From an uncultured Leptolinea sp. (GTDB taxonomy: Bacteria > Chloroflexota > Anaerolineae > Anaerolineales > Anaerolineaceae): 64,000 nucleotides of DNA. Numbering within the stretch: position 1 is the stretch's first letter; the number at the start of each line of letters is the position of its first letter. The notes beneath the pieces were generated by a model. It ran no database searches. It had not been told where the DNA came from and was given only the letters and a program-made list of their open reading frames with translations. The DNA is taken from NCBI GenBank assembly GCA_964648485.1, contig CAZYOF010000017.1:3744-67743 (forward strand), in the 5' to 3' direction. Position numbers and translations under genes: made by a program. Shown here one piece after another: positions 24,783 to 43,895 of the stretch.

Positions 24783-24893
24783 GGCATTTCTCCCGAAAAT
24801 AACTGCTTATGGATGAATTGACCCTCCATATCTTTCTGCGAGGGCAATTTCAATATAGCATGCGGGAGACAGTTTGAACCTTACAGCTACTTT

Positions 24894-25820
24894 TCAATTA
24901 GGATTCGGTTTGTTAGACAATTCCTTCTCGATCATATCCACAGTTACACGGGTTCCGGTACCCCCATACCCGCGCACCGAATAAGACGCAATAATATTCC
25001 CCCAGGCAAGGCACTCCGCCACTGATTTTCCATCGAGATATGCCTTCAGAAAGCCGGCATCATAACAATCACCCGCGCCGGTGGTATCGAGTGGTTTGAC
25101 CGGTGTGACCGGCACATGGGTGATCTCGCCTTTCACGCAGGCGTAACTGCCATCTGGACCGTTCTTGACCACCACCAGCGGACACAGCTCCCCCAGCACG
25201 CGGATGGCATCTGCCAGATCCGCCTTCTGTGTGAGGGAACAGGCTTCCTGCGCGTTAGGTAGAAAGATATCGGTCTGCTTCAATGCCCGTTGCAATGGCT
25301 TTTCAGTGATGCGTGACTCAGGGCTACAGTTGCCATCCATCATTAAGATCATCTTCTTCATCTTAATTACCGGCACTGCCATATCAAACATCTTGCCGTA
25401 CAACATGCCGGGGATAAATACCGCCCGTGCGTTCACCTTTGCCAGGGCAGCCACCCCCGCGGGGATGGTCGGCTCGGGGTCGTAGTAGGTCATGAACCCA
25501 CGGTCCGGACCGACAGATGCAGCCGATGAGATACGCCGGTAAGGGCGGTTGTGATGTACGAAAAAGCGCTCATCCATGCCCTCGGCGCGGACAAAATCGA
25601 GGATGATCTTGCTGATAAGGTCGTTGCCCCAATCCGCCGCCCATGCGACCTTCATGCCCAGCCGATGCATCGCCGCCGCCGCGGTGTAAGCCTCTCCGGG
25701 CAGCATGTCGAAACCCTCAGCCAGCGTATCTTCGTGCAGAATGGGCAGACGCGGCAGGTTGGCGTAGATCACATCCAGACTGGCATCGCCCACCACGAGC
25801 ACATCGTACTTTTCTGCCAT
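24894..25820 (-). CDS. PfkB-family carbohydrate kinase
   Basis: MAEKYDVLVVGDASLDV N-terminus and the DTTGAGD motif near the C-terminus. The ATG at 25820 lies 1 nt after the upstream gene's stop. Confidence 0.8.
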   Translation of the reverse strand: MAEKYDVLVVGDASLDVIYANLPRLPILHEDTLAEGFDMLPGEAYTAAAAMHRLGMKVAWAADWGNDLISKIILDFVRAEGMDERFFVHHNRPYRRISSAASVGPDRGFMTYYDPEPTIPAGVAALAKVNARAVFIPGMLYGKMFDMAVPVIKMKKMILMMDGNCSPESRITEKPLQRALKQTDIFLPNAQEACSLTQKADLADAIRVLGELCPLVVVKNGPDGSYACVKGEITHVPVTPVKPLDTTGAGDCYDAGFLKAYLDGKSVAECLAWGNIIASYSVRGYGGTGTRVTVDMIEKELSNKPNPN

Positions 25821-25821
25821 A

Positions 25822-27177
25822 TCAGCGCAACCTCGGGAAGTAATCACCATGCCGGGCGAGGTAGGCATCTACCAGCGCCTGTGCGCCGAGGTAATCTGCC
25901 ACCAGCGGATGGATGGTGAGGGCGTGGATGGCTTTCGCACGGCTGCCTTCCACCGCCGCTTCGATGGTCTTCTGCTCGTAGGCTTTGACGGTTTGCATGA
26001 GCCCCAGGCAGTGGATGGGAATCTCGCCCACCGGAATGCCTTCCACTTTATCACGGCTGACCCGCGCGGCGATCTCGACCACTTCGTCATCCTGCATCCC
26101 CTGCACGCAACCCCGGTTGGGGATGTTCACGATAAGCGTGCGCTGTTCACCTCCCACCAGCGCCTCGATCAGGTTGAGCGCCAGGCGCGCGTATCCCAGC
26201 TCGGCATCGCGGACGGTCGTCTCATCCACCTTGACCTGCGTTTCATCCCCACCCCAGTGCGCCCTGCCGCGCTCGATGAGGTAGCGGTTGTACACGCGCT
26301 GCAAGCCTTCGGCATCTTCCTTCTGGCGCGCCTCGCGCACCATGGCAAAGAAGGCGTGGTTCATGCGCGCCACTTCTTCTCCACGCAGCTCGGCAGCGGA
26401 TTTCATGTGCGCGTACTCTTCACGCGACTGGTAGTAATACTTGAGATAGTAATTGGGCAGCAACCCCAACGCTGCAGCCACCTGCGGGCGGACCTCGTAG
26501 CCGGGAATATCTTCTTCTTGCGCAAGGAAAGCAAGGATCTGCCCGATCAGCTCCTGATCGCCCACCTTCACCGAACGGATCCAGCCCAGGTGGTTCAAGC
26601 CAAAATACTCCGCCTGGATCTGGCTCTCATACAGCAGCAGCGAATCGGCAATGGCGGAGATCATGTCCGAGGGACCATCGCAGATGCCCACCGCGCGTTG
26701 CCATCCACCCACACTGGCAACCGCCTCTGCCAGCATCCCACTGGGATTGGCGAAGTTGATGAGCCACGCGTTGGGACAGAGCGTTTTCATCTGCTCCACG
26801 TATGCCAGCAGAACGGGGATAGAGCGCAAACCCATGGCAAAGCCACCCGCGCCGGTGGTCTCTTGCCCGATGTAGCCCAGATCGACCGCCACGCGCTCAT
26901 CGATCACGCGCGAGTCGATGCCGCCCACACGGAAGATGGTGATCACGTAATCCGCGCCGCGCAGGGCATCTTCTGCCTTCGTGGTGCGGTGGATGCGGAA
27001 TTTGACCGCCGGGTCGCTTTCGAGCAGCATGGTGATGGCGCCGATCAGCTCCAGCCGCTCGGCATCCACATCCATCAGCCAGAGTTCTGTAATCCCCAGC
27101 GCGTTTTGCCGGGTGATGATTTCCTGCACAATCAGCGGCGTTCGTACCCCCGCCGCACCTAAAATGGTCAGTTTCAT
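25822..27177 (-). CDS. Glycoside hydrolase family 4 (6-phospho-glucosidase-like, NAD/Mn-dependent)
   Basis: The MKLTILGAAGVRTP Rossmann start, overall length and ..NFANPSG.. motif are typical of GH4. Confidence 0.8.
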   Translation of the reverse strand: MKLTILGAAGVRTPLIVQEIITRQNALGITELWLMDVDAERLELIGAITMLLESDPAVKFRIHRTTKAEDALRGADYVITIFRVGGIDSRVIDERVAVDLGYIGQETTGAGGFAMGLRSIPVLLAYVEQMKTLCPNAWLINFANPSGMLAEAVASVGGWQRAVGICDGPSDMISAIADSLLLYESQIQAEYFGLNHLGWIRSVKVGDQELIGQILAFLAQEEDIPGYEVRPQVAAALGLLPNYYLKYYYQSREEYAHMKSAAELRGEEVARMNHAFFAMVREARQKEDAEGLQRVYNRYLIERGRAHWGGDETQVKVDETTVRDAELGYARLALNLIEALVGGEQRTLIVNIPNRGCVQGMQDDEVVEIAARVSRDKVEGIPVGEIPIHCLGLMQTVKAYEQKTIEAAVEGSRAKAIHALTIHPLVADYLGAQALVDAYLARHGDYFPRLR

Positions 27178-27313
27178 ATGCCACCTGTAATATTGGGTTG
27201 AGCAAATTATACCTGATGCCCGCCCGCGCCCGGAACTGTTCGATAGTTCTCCTGTATAATTTTAATGCAACGGCAGCGCGGATTCCACGTATATTTGTGT
27301 GAGGATAAAGAAG

Positions 27314-27730
27314 ATGGGCAAAAAACATAAGGATGAGAAGAAATTGAAACAACCCTGGCGCAATTTGCACGGCGCCATCTGGCTGATCGGATTAGGCTAC
27401 CTGTTCATCAGCGGCAACTGGTTCCCCGGTATTCTGTGGCTGATCGGGGTGAGCATGATCCTCGAAGCCGTGCTGATGATGGCGGTACCCGATGCCTACG
27501 AAGAAGAGGAACCAAAGGAAACCAAACCCGAACCGACCCCCGGACCGGCGGTGTTGGAGACCGATTTCAGCATTCCGGCGCCCGCTCCCAGAGCGGAGCC
27601 GCGCCCCTACGCTTCTCTGCCCACCAACTGCCCGCGCTGCGGCGCCCCTGCCCGTGGACACGAGGTGATCTGGCACGGCAGCCATTCTGCCGATTGCGCC
27701 TTCTGCGGTGCGAGTTTGCCCATCAAATAA
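27314..27730 (+). CDS. Small membrane protein with a Pro/Glu-rich linker and a C-terminal Cys4 zinc-ribbon
   Basis: Two TM helices, then CPRCGAP...CAFCGAS. GAGGA lies 8 nt before the ATG at 27314. Confidence 0.5.
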   Translation: MGKKHKDEKKLKQPWRNLHGAIWLIGLGYLFISGNWFPGILWLIGVSMILEAVLMMAVPDAYEEEEPKETKPEPTPGPAVLETDFSIPAPAPRAEPRPYASLPTNCPRCGAPARGHEVIWHGSHSADCAFCGASLPIK

Positions 27731-27798
27731 TCAAATTCCTCTCTCCCCAATCTTCGATTGGGGAGAGTATGTTTGTTCCCTACTTTGCTAATTAAACT

Positions 27799-28023
27799 GT
27801 CATTCTGCCTTGCCCTGGCGGGCTAGGCCAGGGAGCGCAGCGAAGAATCTCTACCAATGTTTAACTTAATGATTCATCACATCATGCCAGACCACAATAC
27901 GAAGTAGAGATGCTTCACGTTGTTCAGCATGACAAACTGGGGTTAATAAATATATCCTGTTTTTTTACTGTCAACCTACCTCAGTCTATCATTCTGCCTT
28001 GCCCTATTGGGTATAAGCCAGGC
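27799..28023. repeat. Cluster of REP/MITE-like intergenic repeats
   Basis: A 17-nt identical core tcattctgccttgccct occurs at 27800-27816 and 27989-28005. An imperfect 30-nt inverted repeat pairs 27799-27854 (with a 26-nt insertion) against 27904-27933. An internal 7-bp hairpin is ccctggc/gccaggg. Confidence 0.65.
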
Positions 28024-28858: not shown

Positions 28859-29353
28859 TCAACCTTTCACCCCCCTGCGTTTCTCCTCCTGCATCATTAG
28901 CGCCATATTCTTATAAAACAGCAGCCCCACGATCATATCATTCCAATTACGAAAGAGATGATTGAGCGGCATGAGGAAAGGCTTGCCGTAGTCTCGCTGC
29001 TGGTAGAGCTTGCCCGATGCCCACAGCTTCCACAGATCCACACCCGTGCGGTCGCGCAGATCGGTGAAAAGGGCATCGAGGATGGCTTCCCACACGCCCG
29101 CTTTCACCCAGCCGGTGTAGCGCCTGAAACAGGTGGTGTAGGGTGGATAGCCCTCGGGCAGCTCCATCCACTGGATGTCACGCAGGATGACATAGAGGAT
29201 GCCCTCGAGCACATCGCGGTCGTTGGCGGGTTTGCGCCCCACCGTGCCCTCTGCCCGCGGGGGGATGACCCCCTGCACGAGCTGCCAGCGCCGGTCGTTG
29301 AGGAAGGTGGTTTTACGCTGCATGGTATTTAGTAATGAAATGAAATTTTGCAA
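28859..29353 (-). mobile_element. IS5/IS4-family transposase N-terminal (DUF4096-like) domain gene with no DDE domain following; probable IS remnant
   Basis: LNDRRWQLVQGVIPP...GRKPANDRDVLEGILYVILRDIQWMELP..YPPYTTCFRRYTGWVKAGVWEAIL matches the typical IS5-group OrfA N-terminal pattern. It sits exactly at the high-GC to low-GC transition. Confidence 0.55.
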
Positions 29354-29419: not shown

Positions 29420-29641
29420 CTACCTGTCACGTGTGACAATTGTTTTGAAAATAAATAGGTGAATTTTTCAGGAATTATGAGGTAATTAGATAAGGCACAC
29501 AAACCAATATGAAAAAATGGAGTGACCTAAACTGCCAATAATTTCATTAATTACTGAATTTGCAGGATGTAAATTTCTTTGCACTCACTATTTGAAAAAA
29601 TGAAAGCTTGTATAATTAAATACTAATACGAGGAGGGTAAA

Positions 29642-30715
29642 ATGCCGATTGAAATTGGAATTTGGCGTATTGAAGATAAGTTAGCCAAAGTCGAATACAT
29701 ACCAATTGAAAATGAAAAAAAACTCGAACAGATCATAATAAAAAATATCCAGATTATCGATAAAGATCTGTTAGTTATTGGTAACCAAATCACCACCGCG
29801 TATGGAAATAAACTAGATATTCTAGCAATTAATAAGAATGCTGAGTTAGTACTAATAGAATTAAAGCGAAATAAGACACCTCGCGATGTTGTAGCCCAAT
29901 TACTTGATTATGCGACCTGGGTTGAGCACCTAAGTTATGATGACGTTAATGCGTTCTATGAAGAAAATCACCCAACAAAAAAACTAGAGCAAGCATTTAA
30001 TGAACATTTTGAGCTTGATATCCCAGATGAATTCAATGAAACCCATAAGTTAATTATTGTCTCTTCAGAATTAGATAACAGTACAGAAAGAATAATTCAT
30101 TATCTATCAGACAATGGTATAGCGATTAATGCAATATTCTTTAAATTTTTCAAAGAAAATGATAAAGAGTACATCACAAGAAGTTGGTTAATCGACCCAT
30201 TCACAACTGATGAAAATGTAAAGAAAACAACAAAAAGATCAAAAAACCTATTTTGGAATGGCAGAGATTGGTATGTGTCTCTTGGTGTAGATGAAAGCCG
30301 CAACTGGGATGATTGTAAAAAATATGGGTTTATATCGGCTGGAGGTGGTAAATGGTACAGTAATACTTTGGCTTTATTACCACTTGAAGCAAGGGTATTT
30401 GTTTGCATACCGAAAGTTGGATATGTAGGTGTCGGTATTGTAAAAAAACAAGCTGTGCCAGTAAAAGAATTCCTTGTTGAGATTGATGAGAAGGAGAGGC
30501 CAATTCTTGAAGCAGAATTAAAAGCAACAAAAATGGGCGAATTTGCAGATGATTTGGAAAAATCTGAGTATTTGGTTGGTGTTGAATGGCTAAAGACTGT
30601 ACCGATAACCAAAGCTATTTGGGAAAAAGGTATGTTTGCCAACCAGAATTCTGCATGTAAACTGCGGAATAGCTTCACGATTGAGCGTTTAACCAAGATC
30701 TTCGAATTAGAATAA
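29642..30715 (+). CDS. NucS-like PD-(D/E)xK nuclease domain fused to an unassigned C-terminal domain (candidate modification-dependent or type IV-like restriction protein)
   Basis: N-terminal [38 protein letters not shown] matches the D..ExK..Q..Y core of NucS-like nucleases. The C-terminal 150 aa ([23 protein letters not shown]...[16 protein letters not shown]) is unassigned. TATAAT lies at 29611-29616 and AGGAGGG 5 nt before the ATG. The line 29701-29760 counts at about 25% G+C. Confidence 0.6.
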
Positions 30716-30735
30716 AGAAATGCCAGGATAAACAC

Positions 30736-32262
30736 ATGACAGATAATTCAAACGAACTTGAAAAAACACTATGGGCAGCCGCAGATAAAATGCGCTCGAA
30801 TATGGACGCAGCTGAATATAAACACGTCGTATTAGGATTGATTTTTCTCAAATACATTTCTGATGCATTCAACGATTTGTACCAAAAGCTCGCAGAGAAC
30901 AAAGGCGAATATGAGGGCTCTGATCCTGAAGACCCAGATGAGTACCTGGCTAACAATGTCTTTTTCGTACCTGAAAAAGCGCGCTGGCAATACCTGCAGG
31001 ACCGCGCCAAACAGCCAGAAATCGGCAAATATCTTGATGACGCCATGGATGCCATCGAACGGATTAACCCGCCGCTCAAGGGTGTGCTTCCCAAAATTTA
31101 TGCAGACCCAGAGTTAAACAAGCCGCGGTTGGGGGAATTAATTGATTTAATTGGCACAATCGGTTTTCGCCAGGATGCGCACGCGTCCCAGGACCTGCTG
31201 GGGCGTGTCTATGAATATTTCTTAGGCCAATTTGCCGACGCCGAAGGGAAAAAAGGCGGACAATTTTACACCCCTGCCAGTATTGTTAAACTACTTGTCG
31301 AGATGATTGAACCTTTTAACGGCCGTGTCTATGACGGCTGCTGCGGCAGCGGCGGTATGTTTGTTCAGAGTGAAAAGTTTGTCCGTAACCACCAGGGGAA
31401 CATCAAAGACCTGTCGATCTTTGGACAAGAGTCCAACCCCACCACCCTGCGGCTGGCGCGCATGAACCTGGCTATTCGCGGGATCGACGCCAAACTGGAA
31501 CTAGGCGATACCTTCCTCAATGACCGCCATCCAGACCTCAAAGCGGATTTCATTCTAGCTAACCCGCCTTTCAATGTGAGTGATTGGAGCGGCGAGCAGC
31601 TGCGCGATGACATTCGTTGGAAGTACGGACTGCCGCCAGTCGGTAACGCCAATTATGCCTGGCTGCAGCATTTTATCCATAAACTCAGCCCCACGGGTAC
31701 CGCCGGAATTGTGCTCGCAAACGGAAGTATGAACAGCAACACTGGCGGTGAAGGCGAGATTCGCAAGAATATGATCGAAGCTAACATAGTGGACTGCATG
31801 GTTGCCCTGCCTGCCCAGCTTTTTTATAATACGATGATCCCTGCCTGTCTATGGTTCCTGGCTAGAGACAGGACGAATCATAAATTTCGCAACCGTTCCA
31901 ACGAGCTATTATTCATTGATGCCCGCAAACTGGGATCGATGATTAATCGCCGCAACAAAGAGTTTGCACCCGAAGATATCTCCAAAATCGCTGGCACCTA
32001 CCACGCCTGGCGCGGCGAGGGCGGTGTGTATGAAGACCAGCCCGGTTTTTGCAAAGCGGCAACCATGGATGAAGTTCGCGCTAACAATTACGTACTGATG
32101 CCCGGGCGATATGTGGGCACGGAAGAAGCCGAAGATGACGGCATCCCGTTTGAAGACAAAATGAATGCGCTGACGGCTCAACTGGCTGAACAGTTCGCCC
32201 GTGGAAATGAACTACAGCAACGGATTCGCGAGAATTTGAAAGGGATCGGTTATGAATTCTGA
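30736..32262 (+). CDS. hsdM: Type I restriction-modification system, DNA methyltransferase subunit (N6-adenine)
   Basis: HsdM N-terminal domain ([32 protein letters not shown]), AdoMet motif [10 protein letters not shown] and catalytic NPPF. Confidence 0.95.
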
Positions 32263-33376
32263 AGTAAAACTTCTTCCGCCAGCCAGGTTGGAAGAAACCA
32301 AACCCATCTTAAAAAAACTGGCATCCGCACACCGTTACCTGGCAGAGTTAAAGGGTGTAGCTGCATCGATCCCCAACCAAACCATCCTGATTAACACGCT
32401 CGCGCTGCAGGAAGCCAAAGACAGTTCTGCGATTGAGAATATCATTACTACACATGATGCTCTGTATAAGGAGCAGTTATTCAGCGATGTGATTAGCGAC
32501 GCCGCTGCAAAGGAAGTCAGCCTTTACGCGGAAGCGCTCAAACATGGTTTTGATCTGGCTACGAAAAATCACATGCTCACACTAAACCATGTTGTCGAAA
32601 TCCAGAAACGGCTGGAACAGAATGACGCCGGCATACGCAAAATTCCAGGCACGGTACTGGTCAACCCGGCTAGTGGATCGGTTATTTATACACCTCCTCA
32701 GGAGTATCAGACCATTCTGAGATTAATGGATAATCTGATGGCGTATATCAATAACCAAGAAATGCATGATGTGGACCCCTTAATCAAAATGGCGGTTATT
32801 CACTACCAGTTTGAAACCATCCATCCCTTTTATGACGGCAATGGACGCACCGGCAGGATCATTAATTTGCTTTACTTGGTCATGGAAGGGTTATTAACCT
32901 TACCAGTTTTATACCTCAGCCGCTACATCATTCGCAACAAAGGCGAATATTACCGTCAGCTGCAAAGCGTGCGGGACACTGACGAATGGGAACCCTGGAT
33001 ATTGTACATGCTAGAAGCAGTGGAACAAACCTCACAGCAAACCATTCTGCTGGTGAACGGCATTAAAGACCTGATGATGGATTACAAACACCGTATCCGC
33101 AGTGGGTATCCCCGGCTTTACAGCCAGGATCTGATCAACAACTTATTCAGGCATCCTTACACCAAGATCGAATTCTTAATGCGAGATTTGAACATCAGCC
33201 GGCTGACAGCTGCCAAATACCTGGACACGCTGGCAGCGGATGGTTTTCTGGTCAAAGAGAAAATTTGGCGCAGCAATTACTATGTCAACCTCCCGTTATT
33301 TAACCTGCTAAAAGGAGATAACGGGCCGGTCGATACAGAACCGGTTGTCCTCACCCGCCGTATGGATCAGGTATAA
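32252..33376 (+). CDS. Fic/DOC-family protein (Fic_N, Fic and a C-terminal wHTH-like domain) embedded in the R-M operon
   Basis: Canonical Fic motif [12 protein letters not shown]. The N-terminal inhibitory-helix motif SSAIEN fits [ST]xxxE[GN]. The start overlaps the hsdM stop by 11 nt. Confidence 0.9.
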
Positions 33377-33530
33377 AAACAGATGAAAAGTAAACACGAT
33401 CAATTTGTCATGCATAAAATAGCAAAAAATTTATACATGAAACAAATGTCATGCATAAATCCAGTAATGACCTTTAAGTTAGAAGATAATCAAGAGAAGT
33501 CCATTCACCAGAAATTTGGGGGTATGAGTT

Positions 33531-34778
33531 ATGAGTTCTAATGAATGGAGAAAATATAAATTAGAGGAAATTGCTGAGATTATTGGAGGCGGTACTCCAT
33601 CAACAACAAATCCAGATTTTTGGGGCGAAGAGATACCTTGGGTAACTCCTCGCGATTTAGCCAGTACTGATGAACGTTTTATCTCATGCGGGGAAAGGAA
33701 TATTACAAAAAAGGGTCTACAAAACTCAAGTGCACGGTTGCTACCCGCAGGAACAGTTTTACTGACAACACGAGCCCCAATAGGTTATTTGAGAATTGCA
33801 TTGAATCCAATTTGCACAAACCAAGGATTTAAAAGTCTAATTCCAAAAGCAGATATTGCTGATAACCAATTTCTTTTCTATTTGCTTAAAAACAATGTTG
33901 AGTATTTAAAATCGGTTGGCGTAGGAACCACATTTGCTGAAATATCTGGAAGTGCACTACGGCAAATTGAATTTCAATTTCCTCCCCTCCCCACACAACG
34001 CCGCATCGCCGAAATCCTCTCCGCGCTGGATGACAAGATCGAACTCAACCGCCAGACCAATGCCACCCTGGAAGCCATCGCCCAGGCCATTTTCAAGGAG
34101 TGGTTTATCAATTTCAACTTCCCCGGTTCAACCGGTGAGATGGTCGAGAGTGAACTGGGGATGATTCCCAAGGGGTGGAGAGTGGGGAAGCTGGGAGATG
34201 TATGCAAGTTGATTAAAGGCGTATCTTATAAAAGTAGCGAGTTACAACATTCGGATTCAGCTCTTGTAACTTTAAAATCCATAAATCGTGGAGGTGGGTT
34301 TAATAATGATGGATTTAAAGAATATTTAGGTACTTTTAAAACCTCACAGTGCCTAAAAGAAGGGGATTTGATTTTTGCACAAACTGATATAACTCAGAAT
34401 GCGGATGTTGTCGGTAGCCCTGCAATAGTAGAAAATCCCTTTAATTATAAAAATCTTGTCGCTTCTCTTGATATTGTCAAATGCGAACCCACAAACGAAA
34501 TGCCTAGTAGCGGCACACTTTATTATTTTTTACAACGCCAAGAATTTAAAGATTACTGTTTGAGTCAAACAAATGGTTCGACTGTCTTACATTTGCGTAG
34601 CTCAGAAGTCCCGAATTATTTGATGATCATACCCTATTCAAGTATTTTAAGAGAATTCAATTCTACAATAACTCCTATCAGGCAAATTATCCTAGAAAAT
34701 AATCAGCAGAATCAAATTTTACGAGAAATTCGTGATGAATTATTGCCCAAATTGATGAATGGGGAAATTGAGGTATGA
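33531..34778 (+). CDS. hsdS: Type I restriction-modification system, specificity subunit (two target-recognition domains)
   Basis: Typical TRD start EIAEIIGGGTPST..P.FWGEEIPWVTPRDL, central conserved region PPLPTQRRIAEILSALDDKIELN and distal conserved helix [20 protein letters not shown]. Confidence 0.95.
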   Translation: MSSNEWRKYKLEEIAEIIGGGTPSTTNPDFWGEEIPWVTPRDLASTDERFISCGERNITKKGLQNSSARLLPAGTVLLTTRAPIGYLRIALNPICTNQGFKSLIPKADIADNQFLFYLLKNNVEYLKSVGVGTTFAEISGSALRQIEFQFPPLPTQRRIAEILSALDDKIELNRQTNATLEAIAQAIFKEWFINFNFPGSTGEMVESELGMIPKGWRVGKLGDVCKLIKGVSYKSSELQHSDSALVTLKSINRGGGFNNDGFKEYLGTFKTSQCLKEGDLIFAQTDITQNADVVGSPAIVENPFNYKNLVASLDIVKCEPTNEMPSSGTLYYFLQRQEFKDYCLSQTNGSTVLHLRSSEVPNYLMIIPYSSILREFNSTITPIRQIILENNQQNQILREIRDELLPKLMNGEIEV

Positions 34779-35824
34779 GCGGATTTAAATATGAGGATGA
34801 CAATTGTAGGCGATTTAATGACTCCCTCGATGAAGAAGGTCTGGTATACATCGCGGGGATTGAATTTCAAAGAAGCCGCATCCTCTATGAATTGGCAACC
34901 ACTACATATATTGATGCGTATAACGAGTTTCAAGAACAGGAATTTCAAGAGTTAAAGCAGACTGTTTTTGATTCATATCCAGCCTGTGTCGCCTATAATT
35001 TTCGGCTATCTGAAAGGGGGGAAGGCGCAAACGATCCTGTACGAAAGCTCTTGCATTTGAAGGATTCCTGGGAAGCAATCGTTTTCGTTTTATATGCTTT
35101 GGTTATGGGGGAAGTGAGATTTAGAAATATTGACATGAAGACATCACAAATATTCGTTTCACTAGGAACTGGAGGAAACCCTGTTTACGCCAATTTCAAT
35201 ACAGACAGGATCCTTTCAGATGCTATCAAACAAAAAGTTCAAAACATTAAAGCCATAATTCTCCATTGTAAAAACAATCATCTGGGATTCAAATGCGAAG
35301 AAATCGATGAGACTTTGCTAGATGACCTGTTGGATTTGCAGGATATTCGCAACGATATTTCACACCATACAGCTCCAACGCGTGAACAGGCAGAGGCTGA
35401 ACTTGCTTTAGTGATCCCATTGTTTCAAAAAATGTTGACGAAAACAAAGTTTTTGGAACGCTGCAATATTCTTCGATTTGATAGTTACTCATCATCTTGT
35501 CGATGTGAATCCTTCAATGGACATTCCCTCAACCGGGAGTATGATAACTACCCATTCCATGATCCGCAAAAAACAATGGTGTTAGGCCTTGGACAGGAAC
35601 AATTGTTTGTAAACTGGGATGGGGAATGCTTTAGCCTGTCTCCTTTCCTTCATTTTGACCGCGATAATTCTGGACATGAGTCTTATTTATGCTTTTATAA
35701 AGGAAAGAAAAACAGCAAATATTGGTTTGAGCCAGTAAAAATTCGAACTGAGAAATCATTTGATTCCATTCAATCTCGTTTTGAAATAGAAAAAGACGAT
35801 CTTGTCAGACTTTTGGTGCCATGA
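34775..35824 (+). CDS. Uncharacterised 349-aa protein translationally coupled between hsdS and hsdR; candidate HEPN-like (Rx4H) effector
   Basis: ATGA overlaps at both ends (34775-34778 and 35821-35824). The motif [14 protein letters not shown] gives R-N-x3-H in a predicted helical region. No Walker A motif and no match to a family I can name. The line 35101-35160 counts at 35% G+C, against 60% in the hsdR line 36721-36780. Confidence 0.6.
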
Positions 35825-38800
35825 TGATATTATACGAATCCGAAATTGAACAAATATCCCTCGAATTACTCCGTGACGAGAACGGCTATGTCATCCTTTA
35901 TGGTCCAGACCTATTAGAAGGCGCCTCTCCCGAGCGTGGTTATAGCGAGGTGGTTCTTAAAAACCGCTTACGCGCTGCCATTAACCTGATTAACCCGCGC
36001 ATTCCAGAGGAAGCGCGTGAAGAAGCCTACAAAAAAGCGTTGCGTACCCAGGCGCTGACTGTAATCGACAACAACGAAGCCTTCCACCACCTGCTAACCG
36101 AAGGCGTGGATGTGAAATTCAGTGTTGGTGATGGCAAAAGCCGCACTGATAAGGTCTGGCTGGTGGACTTCGCGGTTCCGGAGAATAATGAGTTTTTAGC
36201 CGTCAACCAGTTCACCGTGGTGGAAAATAACATCAACAAAAGGCCGGATATCGTCCTCTTCATCAACGGCTTGCCGTTGGTGGTCATCGAACTGAAGAAT
36301 GCTGCTGATGAAAAAGCGGATGTGCAGGCAGCCTTTCACCAGTTACAAACCTACCAACAGGTGATTCCTTCCCTGTTTACATTTACCGCCTTTGAAGTGA
36401 TCAGTGACGGTTGGTTTGCCAAAGCCGGCACCATCTCCAGCGACTATTCCCGCTTCATGGAATGGAAAAGCCTGGACGGCGTCCATGTGGTGGATTCAAA
36501 ACACGAACCCGAACTGGAACCTTTGATCAGGGGGTTGTTAAACAAGACGACACTGCTGGATATCATCCGTCACTTTATCGTTTTTGAAAAGACCAAAGAA
36601 AAAACAATCAAAAAAGTGGCCGCCTACCACCAGTATTTTGCTGTCAATAAAGCCATCATCTCCACCTTGCGCGCCTCAGCTAATGAAAACGGGCATTTCG
36701 CCGCTGAACACCCGGCCGTTTATGGGCTGCCAACTGTCGATCACCAACCCAAAGGCGATAAACGCGCCGGGGTGGTGTGGCACACCCAGGGCAGCGGCAA
36801 GAGCCTTTCCATGGTGTTTTATGCCGGCAAGCTGGTGCTTGCAGAAGAAATGAATAATCCCACTCTGGTGGTGCTGACCGACCGAAATGACCTCGACCAG
36901 CAGCTCTACGAGACGTTCAGCAATTGCCAGCAGTTATTACGCCAGACACCGGTGCAGGCTACCAACCGCGAAGATCTGAAAAAATTGCTTTCGGTGGCTT
37001 CCGGCGGGATTGTCTTTACCACCATTCAAAAATTTTTGCCGGAAGAAAACGGCGGGGTGTATCCAACACTGACCGAACGACGCAACGTGGTTGTCATCGC
37101 GGATGAAGCTCACCGCAGCCAGTACGATTTCATTGACGGCTTTGCCCGGCATATGCGCGATGCTCTGCCGAATGCCTCATTCATCGGGTTTACCGGTACC
37201 CCGATTGAGAAAGAAGATAAAAATACCCAGGCGGTTTTTGGCAATTATGTGGATATCTATGATATTCAGCAGGCTGTGGAAGATGGTGCGACTGTGCGCA
37301 TCTTTTACGAAAGCCGGTTGGCAAAAATTGAACTATCTGCTGCGGATCAAAAAATCCTCGATGAACGCGTTGAAGAAATCACCGAAGATGATGAACTGAC
37401 CGAAAAGCAAAAACGCTTTGCCCGCTGGACTGGCAAGGAAGCCGTGGTGGGAAGCAAAGATCGTATCAAACAGGTGGCAGCGGATATTGTCAGTCATTTT
37501 GAGCAGCGCCTTTCTGCCGCAGAGGGCAAAGGCATGATCGTCTGCATGAGCCGGCGCATCTGTGTTGCACTGCACAAAGAAATTATCAAATTACGCCCTC
37601 AATGGTACAGCCCGGAGGATGACAAAGGCGCCATTAAAATCGTAATGACCGGCTCAGCCAGTGATCCACTCGATTGGCAGGAGCATATCCGCAATAAAGA
37701 TCGGCGCAAGGCCATTGGCAATCGTCTGAAAGACCCCAACGATACGCTCAAGCTGATCATTGTCCGGGATATGTTCCTGACCGGTTTTGATGCGCCTTGC
37801 CTGCACACCATGTATATTGATAAACCCATGAACGGGCATACCCTCATGCAGGCTATCGCCCGGGTCAACCGGGTCTTTGGCGACAAAGAAGGCGGGCTGA
37901 TTGTCGATTACATCGGCATCGCCCAGGATTTAAAAAATGCGCTTTTAGTGTATGCTGCCAGCCAGGGCAAAGGACAGATCACCTTCGATCAGGAAGAAGC
38001 AGTCGCCAAGATGCTGGAATATTATGAAATCGTGGTGGATATGTTCGGGCGTTTTGATTATCGTCGCTATTTCGCATTGGAACCCAAGAAAAAACTCACC
38101 TTCATCCTTGACGCAGCCAATTACATTGCCGACCTGTCTGAAGTAAAAGAGGGCACAACTATCCGCAATGGGAAAGAGAGATTCAAGGAGAACGTCATTA
38201 AGTTACAAAAGGCCTTTGGTTTGGCAGTTCCGCACCCCAAAGCGCTCGAAATCCGCGATGATCTGGCTTTTTTTCAGGCGATCAAAGCCCGTTTCACCAA
38301 GTTTGACGAGACAACAAAGACGCGCACGAACGAAGAAATCGAAACGGCCATCCGGCAAATTATTAATGACGCAATTATTTCCAGTGAAGTCATCGATGTC
38401 TTCGATGCCGCCGGCATTCGCAAACCGGATATTTCCATCCTTTCGGATGAGTTTTTGTCCGAGATTCAGGGCATGGAACGTCGAAATCTGGCGCTTGAAC
38501 TGCTCAAACGATTGCTCAACGATGAGATAAAAACCCGAGGACAAATGAATATGGTCCAGGGACGCAAATTCTCTGAAATGCTGGCGGAAGCAGTGAAACG
38601 CTATCAGAATGGATTAATTGATTCGGCTAAGATCATTGAAGAATTAATTCTATTGGCGAAGGATATCCGCGCAGCGGATCAACGCGGCGAAAAGTTGAAT
38701 CTCCGCCAGGATGAATTGGCCTTTTACGACGCTCTTGCAGATAACCCAAATGCTGAAAATCTGCTTGGTGATCAAATCCTGAAGCAAATCGCCCACGAGC

Positions 38801-39003
38801 TCACCGAAAGCGTTAGGAATAATACTTCAATCGACTGGCAATATAAGCAGAGTGTGCAGGCAAAATTGCGGGTATTAGTGAAGCGTATATTACGGAAATA
38901 CAAATATCCACCGGATGATCCGGCGACTGGCGAATATACAATATCTGTAAATAAAGTATTGGATCAGGCAACTCAATTAGCAGGTTTTTGGGCTGGTCAA
39001 TAA
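35821..39003 (+). CDS. hsdR: Type I restriction-modification system, restriction/translocase subunit
   Basis: N-terminal PD-(D/E)xK nuclease ([19 protein letters not shown]). SF2 helicase motifs ([17 protein letters not shown]). 1060 aa. Confidence 0.95.
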
Positions 39004-39045
39004 ATTAGAATTAATACCTAACTTTCCAAGAACAGGGGCGAGTCA

Positions 39046-39297
39046 TTACACTCCCCAGCGCAGCGGGTTGTGGATGATGTATTCGCGGATGCGCGCTAAA
39101 TCCGCTTCGCCGCGGATGATATGCTCATAATAATTGCGCTGCCAGATCGGCGTGCCCTGGGTATCGTTGATCTCTTTGATCCGTTTGGTGACGGCGGATT
39201 TGTATGCCCGGACGATCGTGGGGAGGGTCGTTGGGGCGCAGCGCGCTGCGCCCGTACGAGGGGCGCTAGTTGGGGTACAGCGTGCTGTGCCCGTACG
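39046..39297 (-). pseudogene. 3' fragment of an IS200/IS605-family Y1 (RAYT-like) transposase gene
   Basis: Hand translation of the minus strand gives RTGTARCTPTSAPRTGAARCAPTTLPTIVRAYKSAVTKRIKEINDTQGTPIWQRNYYEHIIRGEADLARIREYIIHNPLRWGV*. The motif WQRNYYEHIIR..YI..NP is the conserved C-terminal block of this family. The HUH-containing N-terminal half is absent. Confidence 0.7.
39231..39297. repeat. Two REP-like GC-rich palindromic units (40-nt period)
   Basis: gggcgcagcgcgctgcgccc (39234-39253) is a perfect 20-nt palindrome. gggtacagcgtgctgtgccc (39273-39292) is an imperfect copy. Each is preceded by tt/g and followed by gtacg. Confidence 0.75.
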
Positions 39298-42200
39298 CTA
39301 GGGCGCGATTTTTTCGAGCACAGCCAGCAGAGTCTCCTGCCAGGCGGCATCCGCCGGGTCGAAGGGCAGCCAGTAGGCGTTCTTGCCGGCGCGGGCAAGC
39401 GTGCCCAGGTTGGGCAGGTTGCGCTGGGTGATGCCCTCGGGCAGGGGAGGGTAGCGCAGCACGATCTGTCCGCTTTCGGCGCTGATCGATGCCAGGCGGG
39501 CGCTTTCTGCCAGCAGCTTTACCTTGATCTGGTACAGCAGGTTGCGCACGGTTTCGGGCGGCTCGCCAAAGCGGTCTGTAAATTCACCCTGCAGCTCATC
39601 CACACCGGCGGCGTTATCCAGATCTGCCATGCGGCGGTAGAGCTTGAGACGCATGCCCATATCGGGCACGTAACTTTCGGGGATCTCGACCGCCAGCGGC
39701 AGATCCACCTGCACTGGCAAGCCAATCTCCTTCTCGAGCAGCGGGGCGGTGGATTCAGAATCGGGCATGCCGCGCAGGTTGCGCTGCATCTTCACCGCCG
39801 AAGCCAGCAGGCGGGTGTATAGATGAAAGCCGACCGTGGCTATGTATCCGCTCTGGCGGCTGCCGAGCAGTTCGCCCGCGCCGCGCATTTCGAGGTCGCG
39901 CATGGCAATGGAATAACCCGCGCCCAGCTGGGTGTTCTCGGCGATCACCTCGAGCCGTTCCTGCCCTTCGAGCGTGGGCGCGCGGTGTTTGTGGCGGAAG
40001 AAGTACGCGTAGGCGCGCTGGGCGCCGCGTCCCACCCGTCCGCGCAGCTGGTAGAGCTGCGCCAAGCCAAAGGTGTCGGCGCGGTCCACGATGAGCGTGT
40101 TCGCGTTGGGGATATCCAACCCCGATTCGATGATGGAGGTGCACAGCAGCACATCGATCTCTCCGGCGGTGAACTGCTGCATCACGCGCGAGAGCGCGCC
40201 TTCCTCCATCTGCCCGTGACCGATGCCGATACGCGCTTCGGGCAGCAGCTTTTTCAGGTGCATCATCATCGCCGGGATGGTCTGCACGCGGTTGTGGAGG
40301 AAGAAAACCTGTCCGCCGCGTTCGAGTTCGCGGCTGATCGCCTGCTTCACCAGGCGGGGAGAGTACGGTCCCACGTGGGTGATGATGGGCAGGCGCTCGT
40401 CGGGCGGGGTGTTGATGGTGGAGATGTCGCGTACGCCGGTCAGCGCCATGTAGAGCGTGCGGGGGATGGGTGTGGCGGTGAGCGTGAGCACATCCACTTC
40501 GGTGCGCAGCTTTTTGAGATGCTCCTTGTGGGTCACGCCGAAGCGCTGCTCTTCATCGATGATCACCAGCCCGAGGTCTTTGAAGCTGACATCCTCGCTG
40601 ATGAGGCGGTGGGTGCCGATGACGATATCCACCTGCCCGAGCATGAGTTTGCGGATGATCTCATCCTGTTCGCGGGCAGAGCGGAAGCGCGAGAGCATCT
40701 CAACATTGGCGGGGAAGGGCTGCAAGCGCTGGCGGAAGGTCTCATAATGCTGCTGCGCCAGAACGGTGGTGGGCACGAGCACGGCAACCTGTTTGCCATC
40801 CATCACCGCTTTGAAGGCGGCGCGCAGGGCAACCTCGGTTTTGCCGTAGCCTACATCCCCGCACAAGAGCCGGTCCATGGGGCGGGCGTTCTCCATATCG
40901 CGCTTCACGGCAGTAATGGCATCCATCTGGTCGGGCGTCTCCACATAGGGGAAGCTGCCCTCGAGCTCAAACTGCCAGGCGCTGTCTTTGGAGAAGGAGA
41001 AACCCTTCGCCACCTGGCGCTCGGCGTACAGGTCGAGCAGGTCCTGCGCAATCTCTTCCACCGCGCCGCGAACCTTGCTCTTGGTGTGCATCCACTCCTG
41101 GCTGCCGAGGCGCGAGAGGGCGGGGCGCTGGTTGCTGGTGCCGATGTAGCGGGTGAGCCTGTCCGCCTGGGGGATGGGGACGAAGAGCTGGTCGCCGCCG
41201 TCGTAATCGATGGCGATAAACTCGCGGGTGATATTGTCGATGGTGCGCCGCACGAGCCCCTGGAAGATGCCGATGCCGTGATCCATGTGCACCACCAGGT
41301 CGCCGATCTGAAAGTCGCCATATTGGGCTTCGGGCGCCTCCACGGTGTGGATCTGCTTGCGGCGCGGCTGGGGTTTTTCCCAGCCGAATACCTCGCTGTC
41401 GGTGTAGAGGAAGACGGGCTTGCCATCTTCCTGGTAGTGAATGAAGCCAGAGAGCAGGCTGCCATCCATAAATTCGGGCTGGGTGAGGGGCACATCCACC
41501 AGGTGGGTGCGCTCATTCCACAATTCGTACAGGCGCGGGCGCTGGCGGGTGATGATGGTCTGCTGAAAGCCCTTGCTGGCGGCATCGAAGAGCGCATCGA
41601 TGAAGGCAGGCTGGCGTCCGGCAAAACGCTGGTTCGCCTGGAAGGCATCTGCCAGAGGAGAGGATTCGCCGCCGGTACCGAAACCCAGATCCACGGCGGG
41701 GTTGCTGCCGATCGAATCCTGTATCTCAGACCAGGTCAGGTAGGGCACGGGGTAGCTGGAGGGCAGATCCCCTGCCCAGACAGCTTCGTTGCGGTTGCCC
41801 ACCGCTTCCTCTTCGATGAGGGTCACGGCGCTTTCGAGCTTGGCGGAATCATCCAGAATGACGAGTGTTCCGCGCGGCAGGTAATCGAGCAGGGAAGAGG
41901 GGAACGCGTGCAGCAGCGCCAGGTGGAACTCGGTGTAAGGTTGTCCCTGCATCTCGGGGTCAGGGGTGAGCGGCTGGAGGAACTCGCGCGCGGGGGGCAG
42001 CAGGTATTTTTCGAGCGGCTGGATGGCGCGCTGGCTGGCGGGGTCGAAGAGCTTGATGGTATCGACCTCGTCGCCGAAGTAATCGAGCCGGATGGGATGG
42101 TCGGCGGTCATGGACCAGATATCGAGGATGCCGCCGCGGCGGGCGAACTGCCCGGGTTCGGCAACAATCTCCACCGCCTCGTAACCGAGCGTAACCAGCT

Positions 42201-42678
42201 GCTGGAGCAGCTTCTCCTGCGGCAGGCTCATCCCACGGGTGAGGCGCGCCAGCGCCTTGAGGAAGTCGCGGCGCGGCATCGAGCGGGTCATCACCGCCTT
42301 GGCGGAGGCGAAAATGAGTGGGTGGCTTTGCGGATTGCCACCCGGTAAATGGTATTCTGCCAGTGCTGTTAGGGTTTGCAGCCGGTCACGGCGGGTTTGG
42401 GCTCCCCAGGGGTCTTTTTCATAGAAGAGAGAATTGGGTTCAGCGAAGATCACCCGCTGCAGGTTCGGCTGCCAGAAGCCGGCTTCATCATAGTAAGTAG
42501 TCACGCGGTCCATGCGGTCGGTGATCACCAGCACCGGGGTGGGGGAATCCGCTGCGAGGGCAGCCATGAGCAGCGGGCGGGCGGATCGCAGCAGCGCCAG
42601 CGGAGGGGAACTCACCCCGCTCTGGATCTGCTTCAGTAGATTGCGGTATGCAGAATGGCTCTGGAGATGTTCAAGCAT
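39298..42678 (-). CDS. mfd: Transcription-repair coupling factor
   Basis: 1126 aa with a UvrB-homology N-terminus, a CarD-like domain, SF2 helicase motifs (GDVGYGKTEVA, IIDEEQRFGV) and a TRG region. Very GC-rich; the line 40021-40080 counts at 73% G+C. Confidence 0.95.
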   Translation of the reverse strand: MLEHLQSHSAYRNLLKQIQSGVSSPPLALLRSARPLLMAALAADSPTPVLVITDRMDRVTTYYDEAGFWQPNLQRVIFAEPNSLFYEKDPWGAQTRRDRLQTLTALAEYHLPGGNPQSHPLIFASAKAVMTRSMPRRDFLKALARLTRGMSLPQEKLLQQLVTLGYEAVEIVAEPGQFARRGGILDIWSMTADHPIRLDYFGDEVDTIKLFDPASQRAIQPLEKYLLPPAREFLQPLTPDPEMQGQPYTEFHLALLHAFPSSLLDYLPRGTLVILDDSAKLESAVTLIEEEAVGNRNEAVWAGDLPSSYPVPYLTWSEIQDSIGSNPAVDLGFGTGGESSPLADAFQANQRFAGRQPAFIDALFDAASKGFQQTIITRQRPRLYELWNERTHLVDVPLTQPEFMDGSLLSGFIHYQEDGKPVFLYTDSEVFGWEKPQPRRKQIHTVEAPEAQYGDFQIGDLVVHMDHGIGIFQGLVRRTIDNITREFIAIDYDGGDQLFVPIPQADRLTRYIGTSNQRPALSRLGSQEWMHTKSKVRGAVEEIAQDLLDLYAERQVAKGFSFSKDSAWQFELEGSFPYVETPDQMDAITAVKRDMENARPMDRLLCGDVGYGKTEVALRAAFKAVMDGKQVAVLVPTTVLAQQHYETFRQRLQPFPANVEMLSRFRSAREQDEIIRKLMLGQVDIVIGTHRLISEDVSFKDLGLVIIDEEQRFGVTHKEHLKKLRTEVDVLTLTATPIPRTLYMALTGVRDISTINTPPDERLPIITHVGPYSPRLVKQAISRELERGGQVFFLHNRVQTIPAMMMHLKKLLPEARIGIGHGQMEEGALSRVMQQFTAGEIDVLLCTSIIESGLDIPNANTLIVDRADTFGLAQLYQLRGRVGRGAQRAYAYFFRHKHRAPTLEGQERLEVIAENTQLGAGYSIAMRDLEMRGAGELLGSRQSGYIATVGFHLYTRLLASAVKMQRNLRGMPDSESTAPLLEKEIGLPVQVDLPLAVEIPESYVPDMGMRLKLYRRMADLDNAAGVDELQGEFTDRFGEPPETVRNLLYQIKVKLLAESARLASISAESGQIVLRYPPLPEGITQRNLPNLGTLARAGKNAYWLPFDPADAAWQETLLAVLEKIAP

Positions 42679-42681
42679 ACT

Positions 42682-43284
42682 TTACGCTTCTCCCATCACC
42701 TCACCGTTGTAGGTGTTCATGGCTTTGTCGAGTCCTTCGAGCACGAAGGTCCGCGCCGCCTGGCTGGCTTCGGCGATCACTTTCTCCATGACAGGCTGAT
42801 CCGCTTTTGGGAAGTCTTGCAGCACGTAGTCGGCGGCTTCCATGCGACCGGGAGGTCTGCCCACGCCGATGCGCAGACGGGGGAAGGCTTGTGTACCCAG
42901 CTTTTCGATGATGGAAGCCAGACCGCGCTGTCCGGCGGATCCACCCCCGGGGCGGATGCGGATGGTACCCACCGGCAGGTCGATATCGTCGTGGATGACG
43001 ATCATCTGCTCGAGGGGGATGCGGTAGAAGCGCAGCAGGGAGGTGACGCTCTGCCCGGAAAGGTTCATGAAGGTCTGCGGCTTGACCAGAATCAGCTTGC
43101 GCCCATCCACGAGGGCAGTACCTATGAGAGCTTTACTCTGCACTTTGGAAAGACGGATGGAGAGATCCACGGCAAGTTTGTCGATGGTCATGAAGCCGAT
43201 GTTGTGGCGGGTGTGCTTGTACTCGCGTCCGGGGTTGCCCAGTCCGACGATCAGGTAGTTGTTGGAAGGTTGTTCAGGTAGCAT
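42682..43284 (-). CDS. pth: Peptidyl-tRNA hydrolase
   Basis: LIVGLGNPGREYKHTRHNIGF signature. 200 aa. It lies 3 nt upstream of mfd. Confidence 0.95.
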   Translation of the reverse strand: MLPEQPSNNYLIVGLGNPGREYKHTRHNIGFMTIDKLAVDLSIRLSKVQSKALIGTALVDGRKLILVKPQTFMNLSGQSVTSLLRFYRIPLEQMIVIHDDIDLPVGTIRIRPGGGSAGQRGLASIIEKLGTQAFPRLRIGVGRPPGRMEAADYVLQDFPKADQPVMEKVIAEASQAARTFVLEGLDKAMNTYNGEVMGEA

Positions 43285-43286
43285 GG

Positions 43287-43895
43287 TTATGATCCGGGGT
43301 TGCGTTTGTTGAATATGAGTGCCAGTCCGACCGCGAGAATGATTCCAATGCCCAGAGAGATGATTATGAGCCTCTGTAACCCTGCCTGGGTGAGGGCAGC
43401 CGGGTTGGGCGCTGCTGGTTTTGCGGTTGCGCCGCTGGGGAGCAGGCTCGGCTTGGTGGGCTGCTCTGTGATGGCGGTTTGCGGTTCTGCCGGATTGGGT
43501 GTAACTGTTTCCATCGTGGAATAGTTCCGTACCCGTATGCCGCTGACGATGTGCTCGCTGATCTCACCACCGCTGAAATATACGCGTAAACGGAGGGAAT
43601 AGTTGCCATCGGATATGGAGGTGGTATCCCAGCTACCAAGCAGCCCTTCTTCGGCGGGTCTTTCGGCTGAAGCGATGGGCAGCCAACCGGCAACTTCCCT
43701 GCCGGTGAAAGCAAATTCCAGGTCGTAACGGGTGTATCCGGTAGCTTTGATGTATCCGGTTACCAATACCTGTCCTTTTACCCCTTCACCATCCACAGGA
43801 GAGAGGATGGCGACATCGCCACCCTGTCCACTGGCGGCGTGGAAGGGTAAAACGAATAAAATAACGACCAGGAGGGAAGAAAAAAGTGCTTTCAT
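43287..43895 (-). CDS. Secreted, C-terminally membrane-anchored protein with an Ig-like domain; function unknown
   Basis: Signal peptide, a beta-rich about 100-aa domain, a Pro/Thr/Ala-rich linker, a C-terminal TM helix and a basic tail. Confidence 0.5.
   Translation of the reverse strand: MKALFSSLLVVILFVLPFHAASGQGGDVAILSPVDGEGVKGQVLVTGYIKATGYTRYDLEFAFTGREVAGWLPIASAERPAEEGLLGSWDTTSISDGNYSLRLRVYFSGGEISEHIVSGIRVRNYSTMETVTPNPAEPQTAITEQPTKPSLLPSGATAKPAAPNPAALTQAGLQRLIIISLGIGIILAVGLALIFNKRNPGS

Follow-up and report, generated by a model that had tools for sequence, protein, structure and literature searches.

The window analysed here is a stretch of 64,000 nucleotides (nt) of contig CAZYOF010000017.1 from an uncultured Leptolinea sp. 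At positions 29642-39003 it contains six genes on the plus strand, g1-hsdM-Fic-hsdS-g5-hsdR, in which a type I restriction-modification (R-M) system is interleaved with three other genes. According to the list of open reading frames (ORFs) of the window, g1 and hsdM are 20 nt apart, hsdM and Fic overlap by 11 nt, Fic and hsdS are 154 nt apart, and each of the last two junctions is an ATGA overlap of 4 nt. The co-directional arrangement and the spacers reported in an initial annotation of this DNA agree exactly with these coordinates. Its identification of canonical hsdM, hsdS and hsdR genes stands as well, these being intact and passing curated models, as does that of three passengers: a NucS-like nuclease (NucS_C domain), a Fic protein with intact motifs and a protein of 349 amino acids (aa) with an Rx4H motif (R192 and H197). 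Two of these passengers belong to families which already have a name. The third, g5, represents an unnamed family of probable RNA-cutting toxins that was found only in such operons. The six genes are the following.

29642-30715, plus strand: g1, 357 aa
30736-32262, plus strand: hsdM, 508 aa
32252-33376, plus strand: Fic, 374 aa
33531-34778, plus strand: hsdS, 415 aa
34775-35824, plus strand: g5, 349 aa, with an ATGA overlap with hsdS and another with hsdR
35821-39003, plus strand: hsdR, 1060 aa

Judged by domains and motifs, hsdM, hsdS and hsdR form an intact and complete type I R-M system. HsdM matched N6_Mtase (E 5.5e-110) and HsdM_N (E 8.2e-27) of Pfam and MTase_I of PADLOC (E 9.8e-217), and the NPPF motif is present in its translation (ANPPFN). 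HsdS carries two Methylase_S stretches (Pfam E 3.5e-46; PADLOC Specificity_I E 1.1e-87), representing two target-recognition domains. In HsdR, the Pfam domains HSDR_N, SWI2_SNF2, T1R_D3-like and T1RH-like_C (the last with E 8.8e-120) were found together with the PD-(D/E)xK nuclease motif, Walker A GSGKS and DEAH, and the protein scored 622 bits against TIGR00348, for which the cut-off is 285 bits. The nearest solved structure is that of EcoR124I HsdR (E 1e-30, motor region only). The C-terminus is of the HindI-like PF11867 type, unlike the EcoR124_C type; in Bacillus, an HsdR of the EcoR124_C type was seen beside an AAA_13 gene resembling prrC.

A closely similar operon was present in a metagenome-assembled genome (MAG) of the Caldisericales (L001), with hsdM, Fic, g5 and hsdR 97-99% identical to those of the window and an hsdS only 36% identical, which indicates a specificity swap. 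On a short contig of a Verrucomicrobiota MAG (L023), g5 is 98% and hsdS 88% identical. The two MAGs belong to different phyla, pointing either to recent inter-phylum transfer with swapping of specificity or to a binning error.

Single-sequence and profile searches with g5 gave no match in Pfam (even at E 10), PADLOC, NCBIfam, PHROGs or the PDB sequences. Its close relatives number 211, are about 350 aa in length, are spread over many phyla and are all labelled 'hypothetical' or unnamed, while a profile search among 1.84 billion representatives expanded the superfamily to 240 clusters. The Rx4H motif reads R192-N-D-I-S-H197, and in 81 members (19-58% identity) R192 and H197 are the only invariant residues. 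N193 is kept in 77 of these members, E100 in 80 and E113 in 73. When the 81 relatives were compared with Pfam, three HEPN models were the most frequent matches, all of them sub-threshold: HEPN_Swt1 in 12 (best E 1.1e-5), HEPN_RiboL-PSP in five and HEPN_Cthe2314 in three. Every other family was matched by at most one relative, including the HEPN families MAE_28990 and Apea with one each. In three further relatives the HEPN-matched stretches span the motif. PADLOC has no model for this family; seven stray single-member matches were obtained, three of which are to the CRISPR HEPN proteins CARF_HEPN, Cas13b and Csx1.

A first AlphaFold run for g5, based on 26 close homologues (pLDDT 76, low confidence at the motif), was superseded by a run with the 81-sequence alignment, which reached a pLDDT of 96.8 and a pTM of 0.93. 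The resulting model has a helical domain (residues ~1-229) and a beta-rich C-terminal domain (~230-330). E100 and E113 are carried by helix 88-117, which is followed by an insert (118-178); helix 179-196 ends with R192 and N193, H197 lies in the next loop, and a helix at 203-223 follows. This arrangement, read from the secondary-structure string of the model alone, equals the layout of helices and motif described for HEPN domains (PMC3710099). The best HEPN match in Foldseek was HepT 6m6u_D, with a target-normalised TM of 0.49 and a probability of 0.30. The g5 profile gave no match in hhalign with the DUF3644-HEPN family or with a 430-aa family carrying an RNHAFH motif, a result which says little since the templates held just three to four sequences each. 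About 52 residues of the model superpose on two small uncharacterised actinophage proteins from BFVD, D0U252 and A0A482JLW4 (rmsd 1.2-2.5 Å, 26-30% identity, probability 1.0). In conclusion, g5 very probably consists of a divergent HEPN domain and an unrecognised C-terminal domain, a membership not established by a curated profile or a structure.

Two members of the superfamily with added domains have lost the R, N and H residues. P0202 (L107, 7001-8995) has a C-terminal PNP_UDP_1 domain, and its gene follows hsdR beside genes with SMODS and SAVED domains, as in CBASS systems. P0250 (L108, 5611-6909) has an EAD7 domain. The loss of the motif in these two variants suggests a conserved g5 scaffold with an exchangeable effector.

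The genomic context of g5 was sampled with one genome per species and by g5 patterns alone, which gave 23 loci. In every one, g5 directly separates hsdS from hsdR and shares their strand, the hsdR being of the same subfamily. From the profile search, nine remote members (20-30% identity) were picked regardless of context; these also adjoin type I R-M genes without exception, seven between hsdS and hsdR and two directly after hsdR. Overall, 32 out of 32 contexts that were not selected via hsd genes adjoin type I R-M genes, 30 with g5 between hsdS and hsdR, and among these contexts g5 was not seen apart from such genes. PrrC was singled out by Payne et al. as almost exclusively embedded in type I R-M systems.

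A set of 66 informative operons was then fetched by similarity to HsdR (68-98% identity). Their hsdS/hsdR junction contained a member of the g5 superfamily in 26 operons (13 close relatives and 13 from a subfamily about 28% identical) and other cargo in 38, and in the remaining two hsdS abuts hsdR. The other cargo comprised RhuM, the HEPN protein DUF3644/HEC-08, Kiwa KwaA/B, an OLD-like ATPase, Abi_C, P-loop proteins, a DarT-like/macro-domain pair, Y1 transposase-like genes and an unannotated 430-aa family. Operons in which HsdR is 95-98% identical differ in cargo (L001, L024, L025 and L059), and thus the R-M enzyme does not need g5. In a comparison with L024 (HsdR 98% identical, no g5), no clean breakpoint was found for the insertion of g5; the 3' half of hsdS differs as well.

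The commonest occupant of the junction other than g5 is a Y1 transposase-like ORF, found in about 22 sister operons and ~100-310 aa long (mostly ~190-230). Its similarity to IS200-type transposases is weak (Pfam Y1_Tnp, E 8.6e-6) and confined to the C-terminal part; such ORFs may mobilise cargo or be cargo themselves. They lie just upstream of hsdR in L025, L028, L030, L032-L035, L037, L038, L040, L041, L043-L046, L059, L070, L089 and L099-L101, and one was also seen in L021 (10584-11273). The unannotated family of about 430 aa has an invariant, HEPN-like ARN(H/K)(A/S)FH motif, and the one member that was scanned had no Pfam match. The members are located as follows.

L031, 2633-3922: member of the ~430-aa family
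L052, 5082-6380: member of the ~430-aa family
L055, 2046-3341: member of the ~430-aa family
L099, 2125-3405: member of the ~430-aa family
L051, 246-899: member of the ~430-aa family

The Fic protein was found to have the architecture Fic_N, Fic and SoFic-like_C in Pfam. It matched SoFic in PADLOC (E 7.8e-117) and the SoFic structures 3EQX, 3ZCN and 9TC4 in the PDB (E ~1e-80, residues 11-356). Both the catalytic motif HPFxDGNGRxxR (from H191 to 202) and the class II inhibitory motif SxxxEN (S58-SAI-E62-N63) are intact. By these features it is a SoFic-type class II AMPylase and a homologue of SoFic (Shewanella oneidensis Fic), with which it shares the three-domain architecture and both motifs. 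It differs from SoFic in being embedded at the hsdM/hsdS junction and in missing the NCBIfam equivalog cut-off (376 versus 550 bits), so that it is a homologue and not a certified equivalog. SoFic has been reported as a single-gene, autonomous abortive-infection system active against T5, and has been described as stand-alone in S. thermophilus.

The spacer between Fic and hsdS, for which the initial annotation gave the right length of 154 nt, is not empty but contains these features.

33383-33541, plus strand: decayed duplicate of the hsdM 3' end, a 52-aa ORF ending in ...GGMSYEF* and overlapping the hsdS start by 11 nt
33406-33418 and 33447-33459, plus strand: two copies of TGTCATGCATAAA, 41 nt apart, read from the sequence

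Since hsdM ends in ...NLKGIGYEF* where it overlaps the Fic start, the overlap of the 52-aa ORF with hsdS mirrors the hsdM/Fic junction. Five other Fic-bearing sister loci have small ORFs ending in (K/G)(G/A/E)I(G/S)YEF, the DNA of which can be aligned to the hsdM 3' end. Read most simply, the Fic cassette entered the hsdM/hsdS junction together with a duplicated hsdM 3' end; the 52-aa ORF is its insertion scar, through which hsdS keeps a stop/start overlap with an upstream ORF. One group has described a 47-aa antitoxin, AS1, encoded downstream of a SoFic-type gene in E. coli H397 (PMC12249575). The 52-aa ORF was considered as an AS1-like antitoxin and set aside: towards its 3' side it is alignable with the end of hsdM, and in L001 its C-terminal half has been swapped along with hsdS while Fic is 99% identical. 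Unlike the H397 arrangement, the small ORF behind Fic in the window is an hsdM remnant and not a recognisable AS1 antitoxin. A weak promoter-like site (33391-33420) overlaps the region of the TGTCATGCATAAA repeats, which may act as an operator or internal promoter for hsdS-g5-hsdR.

Across related operons the hsdM/hsdS slot is occupied by SoFic, YhcG/DUF1016 nucleases, PIN toxin-antitoxin pairs, a 141-aa ORF with an RNKTSH motif, or nothing, and Fic is present in only two of the 23 g5-bearing genome loci. Both internal junctions of this operon lineage act as cargo slots for other defence genes.

The first gene of the cluster, g1, matched PDC-S11 of PADLOC over its full length (PDLC04916, E 1.5e-151, positions 1-356 of 358); PDC-S11 comprises at least eight PADLOC subgroups (hidden Markov models PDLC04909-04916), PDLC04916 being the one matched. 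The N-terminus forms a NucS-like PD-(D/E)xK domain (Pfam NucS_C, E 8.7e-8, residues 25-101), the putative catalytic residues D59, E73 and K75 are present in the translation, and an uncharacterised C-terminal domain follows; over residues 200-357, towards the end where an EVE-like modified-base reader would be expected for Madara, there was no Pfam match. PADLOC's PDC models were built on genes residing within BREX, DISARM and type I R-M systems (Payne et al.). PDC-S11, a single-gene family, was renamed 'Madara' in a preprint of September 2026, the member tested being a modification-dependent, type IV-like nuclease (bioRxiv 10.64898/2026.09.05.749240). According to the same preprint, Madara of E. 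coli ECOR34 restricts T4 with glucosylated hydroxymethylcytosine but not T4(C), requires its nuclease aspartate for defence and complements the neighbouring BREX system. D59 of g1 matches in position D63, the mutation of which abolishes Madara defence. The ECOR34 protein is encoded beside BREX and g1 beside a type I R-M operon; both adjoin a methylation-based defence, which fits a complementary cover of modified and unmodified phage DNA.

More than 3782 homologues of g1 were found, mostly labelled 'NucS domain-containing/DUF91'. In Leptolyngbya they stand alone, and a Bacillus homologue is found some 2 kb away from an unrelated type IC hsdR. Among the 103 related operons collected, not one contained a g1 homologue. 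Because of this absence and of the stand-alone homologues, g1 is regarded as an autonomous neighbour of the R-M operon and not as a regular partner. The pairing of a type IV-like gene with a methylation-based system does recur among the contexts examined. A GmrSD_N gene lies upstream of hsdM on the same strand in the g5-bearing loci L120 and L121 (1127-2548), echoing the position of g1, and an Mrr_cat gene lies downstream of hsdR on the same strand in the g5-bearing loci L122 (10183-11319) and L123 (8146-9282).

Signals for expression and the borders of the cluster were also inspected.

29611-29616 and 29630-29636, plus strand: promoter-like -10 element TATAAT and Shine-Dalgarno sequence GAGGAGG, respectively, ahead of the g1 ATG, read from the sequence
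28859-29353, minus strand: IS4/IS5-type transposase fragment (DUF4096, Pfam E 9.8e-22), at the left edge of the low-GC insertion
39286-39307, plus strand: terminator-like hairpin with T-run, 283 nt past the hsdR stop codon, where the convergent gene mfd has its 3' end, a consensus match only

The -10 element and the Shine-Dalgarno sequence had both been pointed out in the initial annotation. A consensus promoter scan made no call at this TATAAT because a -35 element is absent. Across the region, 24 promoter-like sites were counted against 19.4 +/- 3.8 in shuffled sequence, which is no excess, and terminator-like sites did not exceed shuffled sequence either. With no -35 element and no excess of promoters, transcription of the six genes as one operon from a single promoter is a plausible reading.

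The six-gene cluster has a G+C content of 37-51%, compared with about 62% for the flanking GH4/PfkB genes on the left and mfd on the right, and the transposase fragment was also found upstream of an identical g1 in independent assemblies. The cluster looks like a discrete, horizontally acquired low-GC insertion of about 10 kb. The G+C content of the window as a whole is uneven, with 0.52-0.63 at 23000-28000 (GH4/PfkB) and 39000-44000 (mfd) and 0.37-0.47 in most of the rest, uvrB included; either of the two may be the native composition. Membership in a larger defence island was rejected, because housekeeping genes border the cluster on both sides, GH4 and PfkB upstream and Mfd and, farther on, UvrB downstream. 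Elsewhere in the window (19425-22919, plus strand), a protein of 1164 aa combines a zinc ribbon, an adenylate/guanylate cyclase domain, an AAA_16 ATPase and TPR repeats, a STAND-like signalling architecture.

The locus is probably best described as an R-M backbone with two autonomous, named passengers and one HEPN passenger that depends on the R-M system. In a first layer, the type I enzyme would methylate self DNA and restrict unmodified foreign DNA. Hypermodified phage DNA escaping this enzyme is predicted to be cut by g1, acting alone, and the Fic protein would serve as an auto-inhibited AMPylase causing abortive infection, again autonomously. The fourth layer would be g5, an HEPN-type RNase with an extra beta-rich domain, translationally coupled to hsdS and hsdR, a coupling suggested by the ATGA overlaps on both sides of its gene. 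It would be held inactive as long as the type I complex is intact and, once a phage disables this complex, would fire as an RNA-cutting suicide effector.

The specific mechanism of this last layer, in which g5 would be a latent RNase coupled to the R-M enzyme in the manner of PrrC, is proposed tentatively, as a reading that falls just short of probable. It is put forward because of the invariant pair of catalytic type, the exclusive embedding, the double ATGA overlaps and the lack of an antitoxin gene, and because HEPN and Abi effectors are prevalent in the same slot. From these features we infer the RNase activity and toxicity of g5, its dependence on the Hsd proteins and its trigger. The initial annotation had named PrrC as a precedent for passengers in type I R-M loci; for the 349-aa protein, whose superfamily lies beside type I R-M genes in all 32 contexts, a PrrC-like relationship is reasonable.

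PrrC is the literature example of an effector that a restriction enzyme keeps latent until a phage knocks out the enzyme and so sets it free. In the type IC system EcoprrI (hsdM-hsdS-prrC-hsdR) it occupies the same position as g5, between hsdS and hsdR on the same strand, and shares with it an HEPN-type catalytic signature, an occurrence essentially restricted to type I R-M operons and the lack of a separate antitoxin gene. In contrast to PrrC, g5 has no N-terminal ABC-ATPase (AAA_13) domain and ends in the beta-rich domain instead: neither AAA_13 nor P-loop matches pointing to the ABC/Rad50-like ATPase of PrrC and RloC were obtained, and the model contains the helical and beta domains only. 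Its host HsdR ends in T1RH-like_C and not in EcoR124_C, no sequence similarity with PrrC is detectable, and activity, target and masking by the R-M enzyme are predicted only. As g5 fails the defining architecture of PrrC and RloC, it at most works like PrrC and is not a member.

Also comparable are the stand-alone HEPN families of R-M and Hma operons, namely the Abi2/Swt1-like clade, ApeA and EC042_2821/DUF3644 (HEC-08). They share with g5 the Rx4-6H motif, the helical core and the embedding in defence operons, and HEC-08 occupies the very hsdS/hsdR slot in sister operons; its defence depends on the motif histidine (PMC3710099 and bioRxiv 10.1101/2024.01.29.577857, for these HEPN families jointly). 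They differ in that g5 is captured by none of their models at threshold, the best result being the sub-threshold HEPN_Swt1 matches in 12 of 81 relatives, and has another C-terminal domain. TgvAB of Vibrio cholerae VPI-2 (PMC11411939) resembles the present locus in that defence genes are embedded, co-oriented, in a type I R-M operon, with a type IV-like partner covering modified DNA. The embedded proteins are other ones, however, and the type IV-like gene of the window lies upstream of hsdM and not inside the operon.

Several observations weigh against a PrrC-like function of g5. The ABC-ATPase module that regulates PrrC is missing from it. None of its relatives reaches a Pfam HEPN threshold, and g5 of the window has no HEPN match even at E 10; with either model, Foldseek returned no significant relative in the PDB (E < 1e-3) or BFVD. 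An HsdR 98% identical to that of the window occurs without g5 (L024 and L059), and near-identical HsdR backbones carry g5 subfamilies that are just 28% identical to each other. By this mismatch, there is no signal of co-evolution that would point to a specific interface. The autonomous Kiwa system was found in the same slot, so position alone is no proof of coupling. RNase activity, toxicity and R-M interaction of g5 are predictions from sequence and model.

Among the other readings, the one that survives best is hitch-hiking. All three passengers would then be autonomous defence or selfish genes, with the type I operon as a safe, co-transcribed and co-transferred landing site. It fits the unrelated cargo at both junctions, including the stand-alone Kiwa, SoFic and an OLD-like ATPase, the turnover of cargo between operons with HsdR at least 95% identical (L001, L024, L025 and L059) and the absence of co-evolution between g5 and HsdR. 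Yet autonomous systems such as g1, or SoFic in S. thermophilus, also occur outside R-M operons, whereas the g5 superfamily lay beside hsd genes in every one of the 32 contexts, down to 20% identity. An HEPN toxin without a cognate antitoxin gene would moreover need some other restraint. We regard hitch-hiking of all three genes as unlikely.

Still less probable is the view that g5 belongs to the type I enzyme as a regulatory or accessory subunit without toxicity, perhaps for nucleic-acid sensing or restriction alleviation, the R/H pair then serving for binding. ATGA overlaps with hsdS and hsdR, an exclusive association with type I R-M, the two variants that retain the scaffold without the R/H pair and the absence of an antitoxin gene would all suit a subunit of the complex. 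R192 and H197 are, however, the sole invariant residues, as expected for a catalytic pair, and closely related enzymes manage without g5 (L024 and L053). The slot in sister operons holds abortive-infection effectors, several of them of the HEPN type (DUF3644/HEC-08 and Abi_C), and in addition the unannotated 430-aa family with its RNHAFH motif.

The initial annotation had gone further and suggested a layered system in which one or two latent toxins may be guarded or licensed by the R-M complex. In its fullest form, this model makes the six genes, nuclease fusion included, one integrated system with Fic and the Rx4H protein as the toxins; the six genes are indeed co-directional and tightly spaced, and PrrC-type genes often co-occur with Fic/Doc or RhuM, for which multi-level defence has been proposed (PMC3710099), but this model is very improbable given that g1 was absent from all 103 related operons, that Fic is present in just two of the 23 g5-bearing genome loci and is exchangeable with YhcG, PIN pairs or nothing, that single-gene function has been reported for both SoFic and PDC-S11, and that the trio was found at no other locus examined. 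As a member of the single-gene PDC-S11/Madara family, g1 is not a latent toxin licensed by the R-M enzyme, and Fic, published as autonomous and here one of several interchangeable junction cassettes, does not fit the part of a guarded toxin. Association with hsd genes was confirmed for the homologues of the 349-aa protein and did not hold for those of the 357-aa protein; in PADLOC, g1 and Fic received the names PDC-S11 and SoFic, the 349-aa protein none. The initial annotation did not recognise the combination as described, which is right for the exact trio only; type I R-M operons with embedded Fic, RhuM, HEPN or type IV genes are on record (PMC3710099; bioRxiv 10.1101/2024.01.29.577857; PMC11411939). 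Defence genes embedded in such operons, PrrC and the Rlo genes among them, being an established phenomenon, g5 is counted within a known kind. In the 'guilt-by-embedding' survey of Payne et al., more than half of the embedded genes were unexplained.

A wider version of the PrrC-like reading is more speculative and rather doubtful. The g5 superfamily would be a second, ATPase-independent PrrC-like solution, whose scaffold, present in many phyla, docks on HindI-like type I complexes and fires a built-in HEPN RNase when a phage neutralises the restriction enzyme; rare variants would have swapped in a PNP-type nucleosidase or an EAD7 adaptor in place of the RNase, and the hsdS/hsdR junction would serve specifically as a 'guard' slot and not just as a landing pad.

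In terms of annotation most of the outcome is ordinary, two of the three 'non-canonical' genes having been named before, and g5 is a good, not a revolutionary, candidate for experiments. The hsdS/hsdR junctions were occupied in 64 of the 66 operons, and since several of the occupants are unannotated, new defence genes can usefully be sought there. If the prediction for g5 is true, the protein would be a compact test case, with about 350 residues, a confident model and two obvious residues to mutate. Should the family work like PrrC, the logic of guarding would be more widespread and could be built without an ATPase switch.

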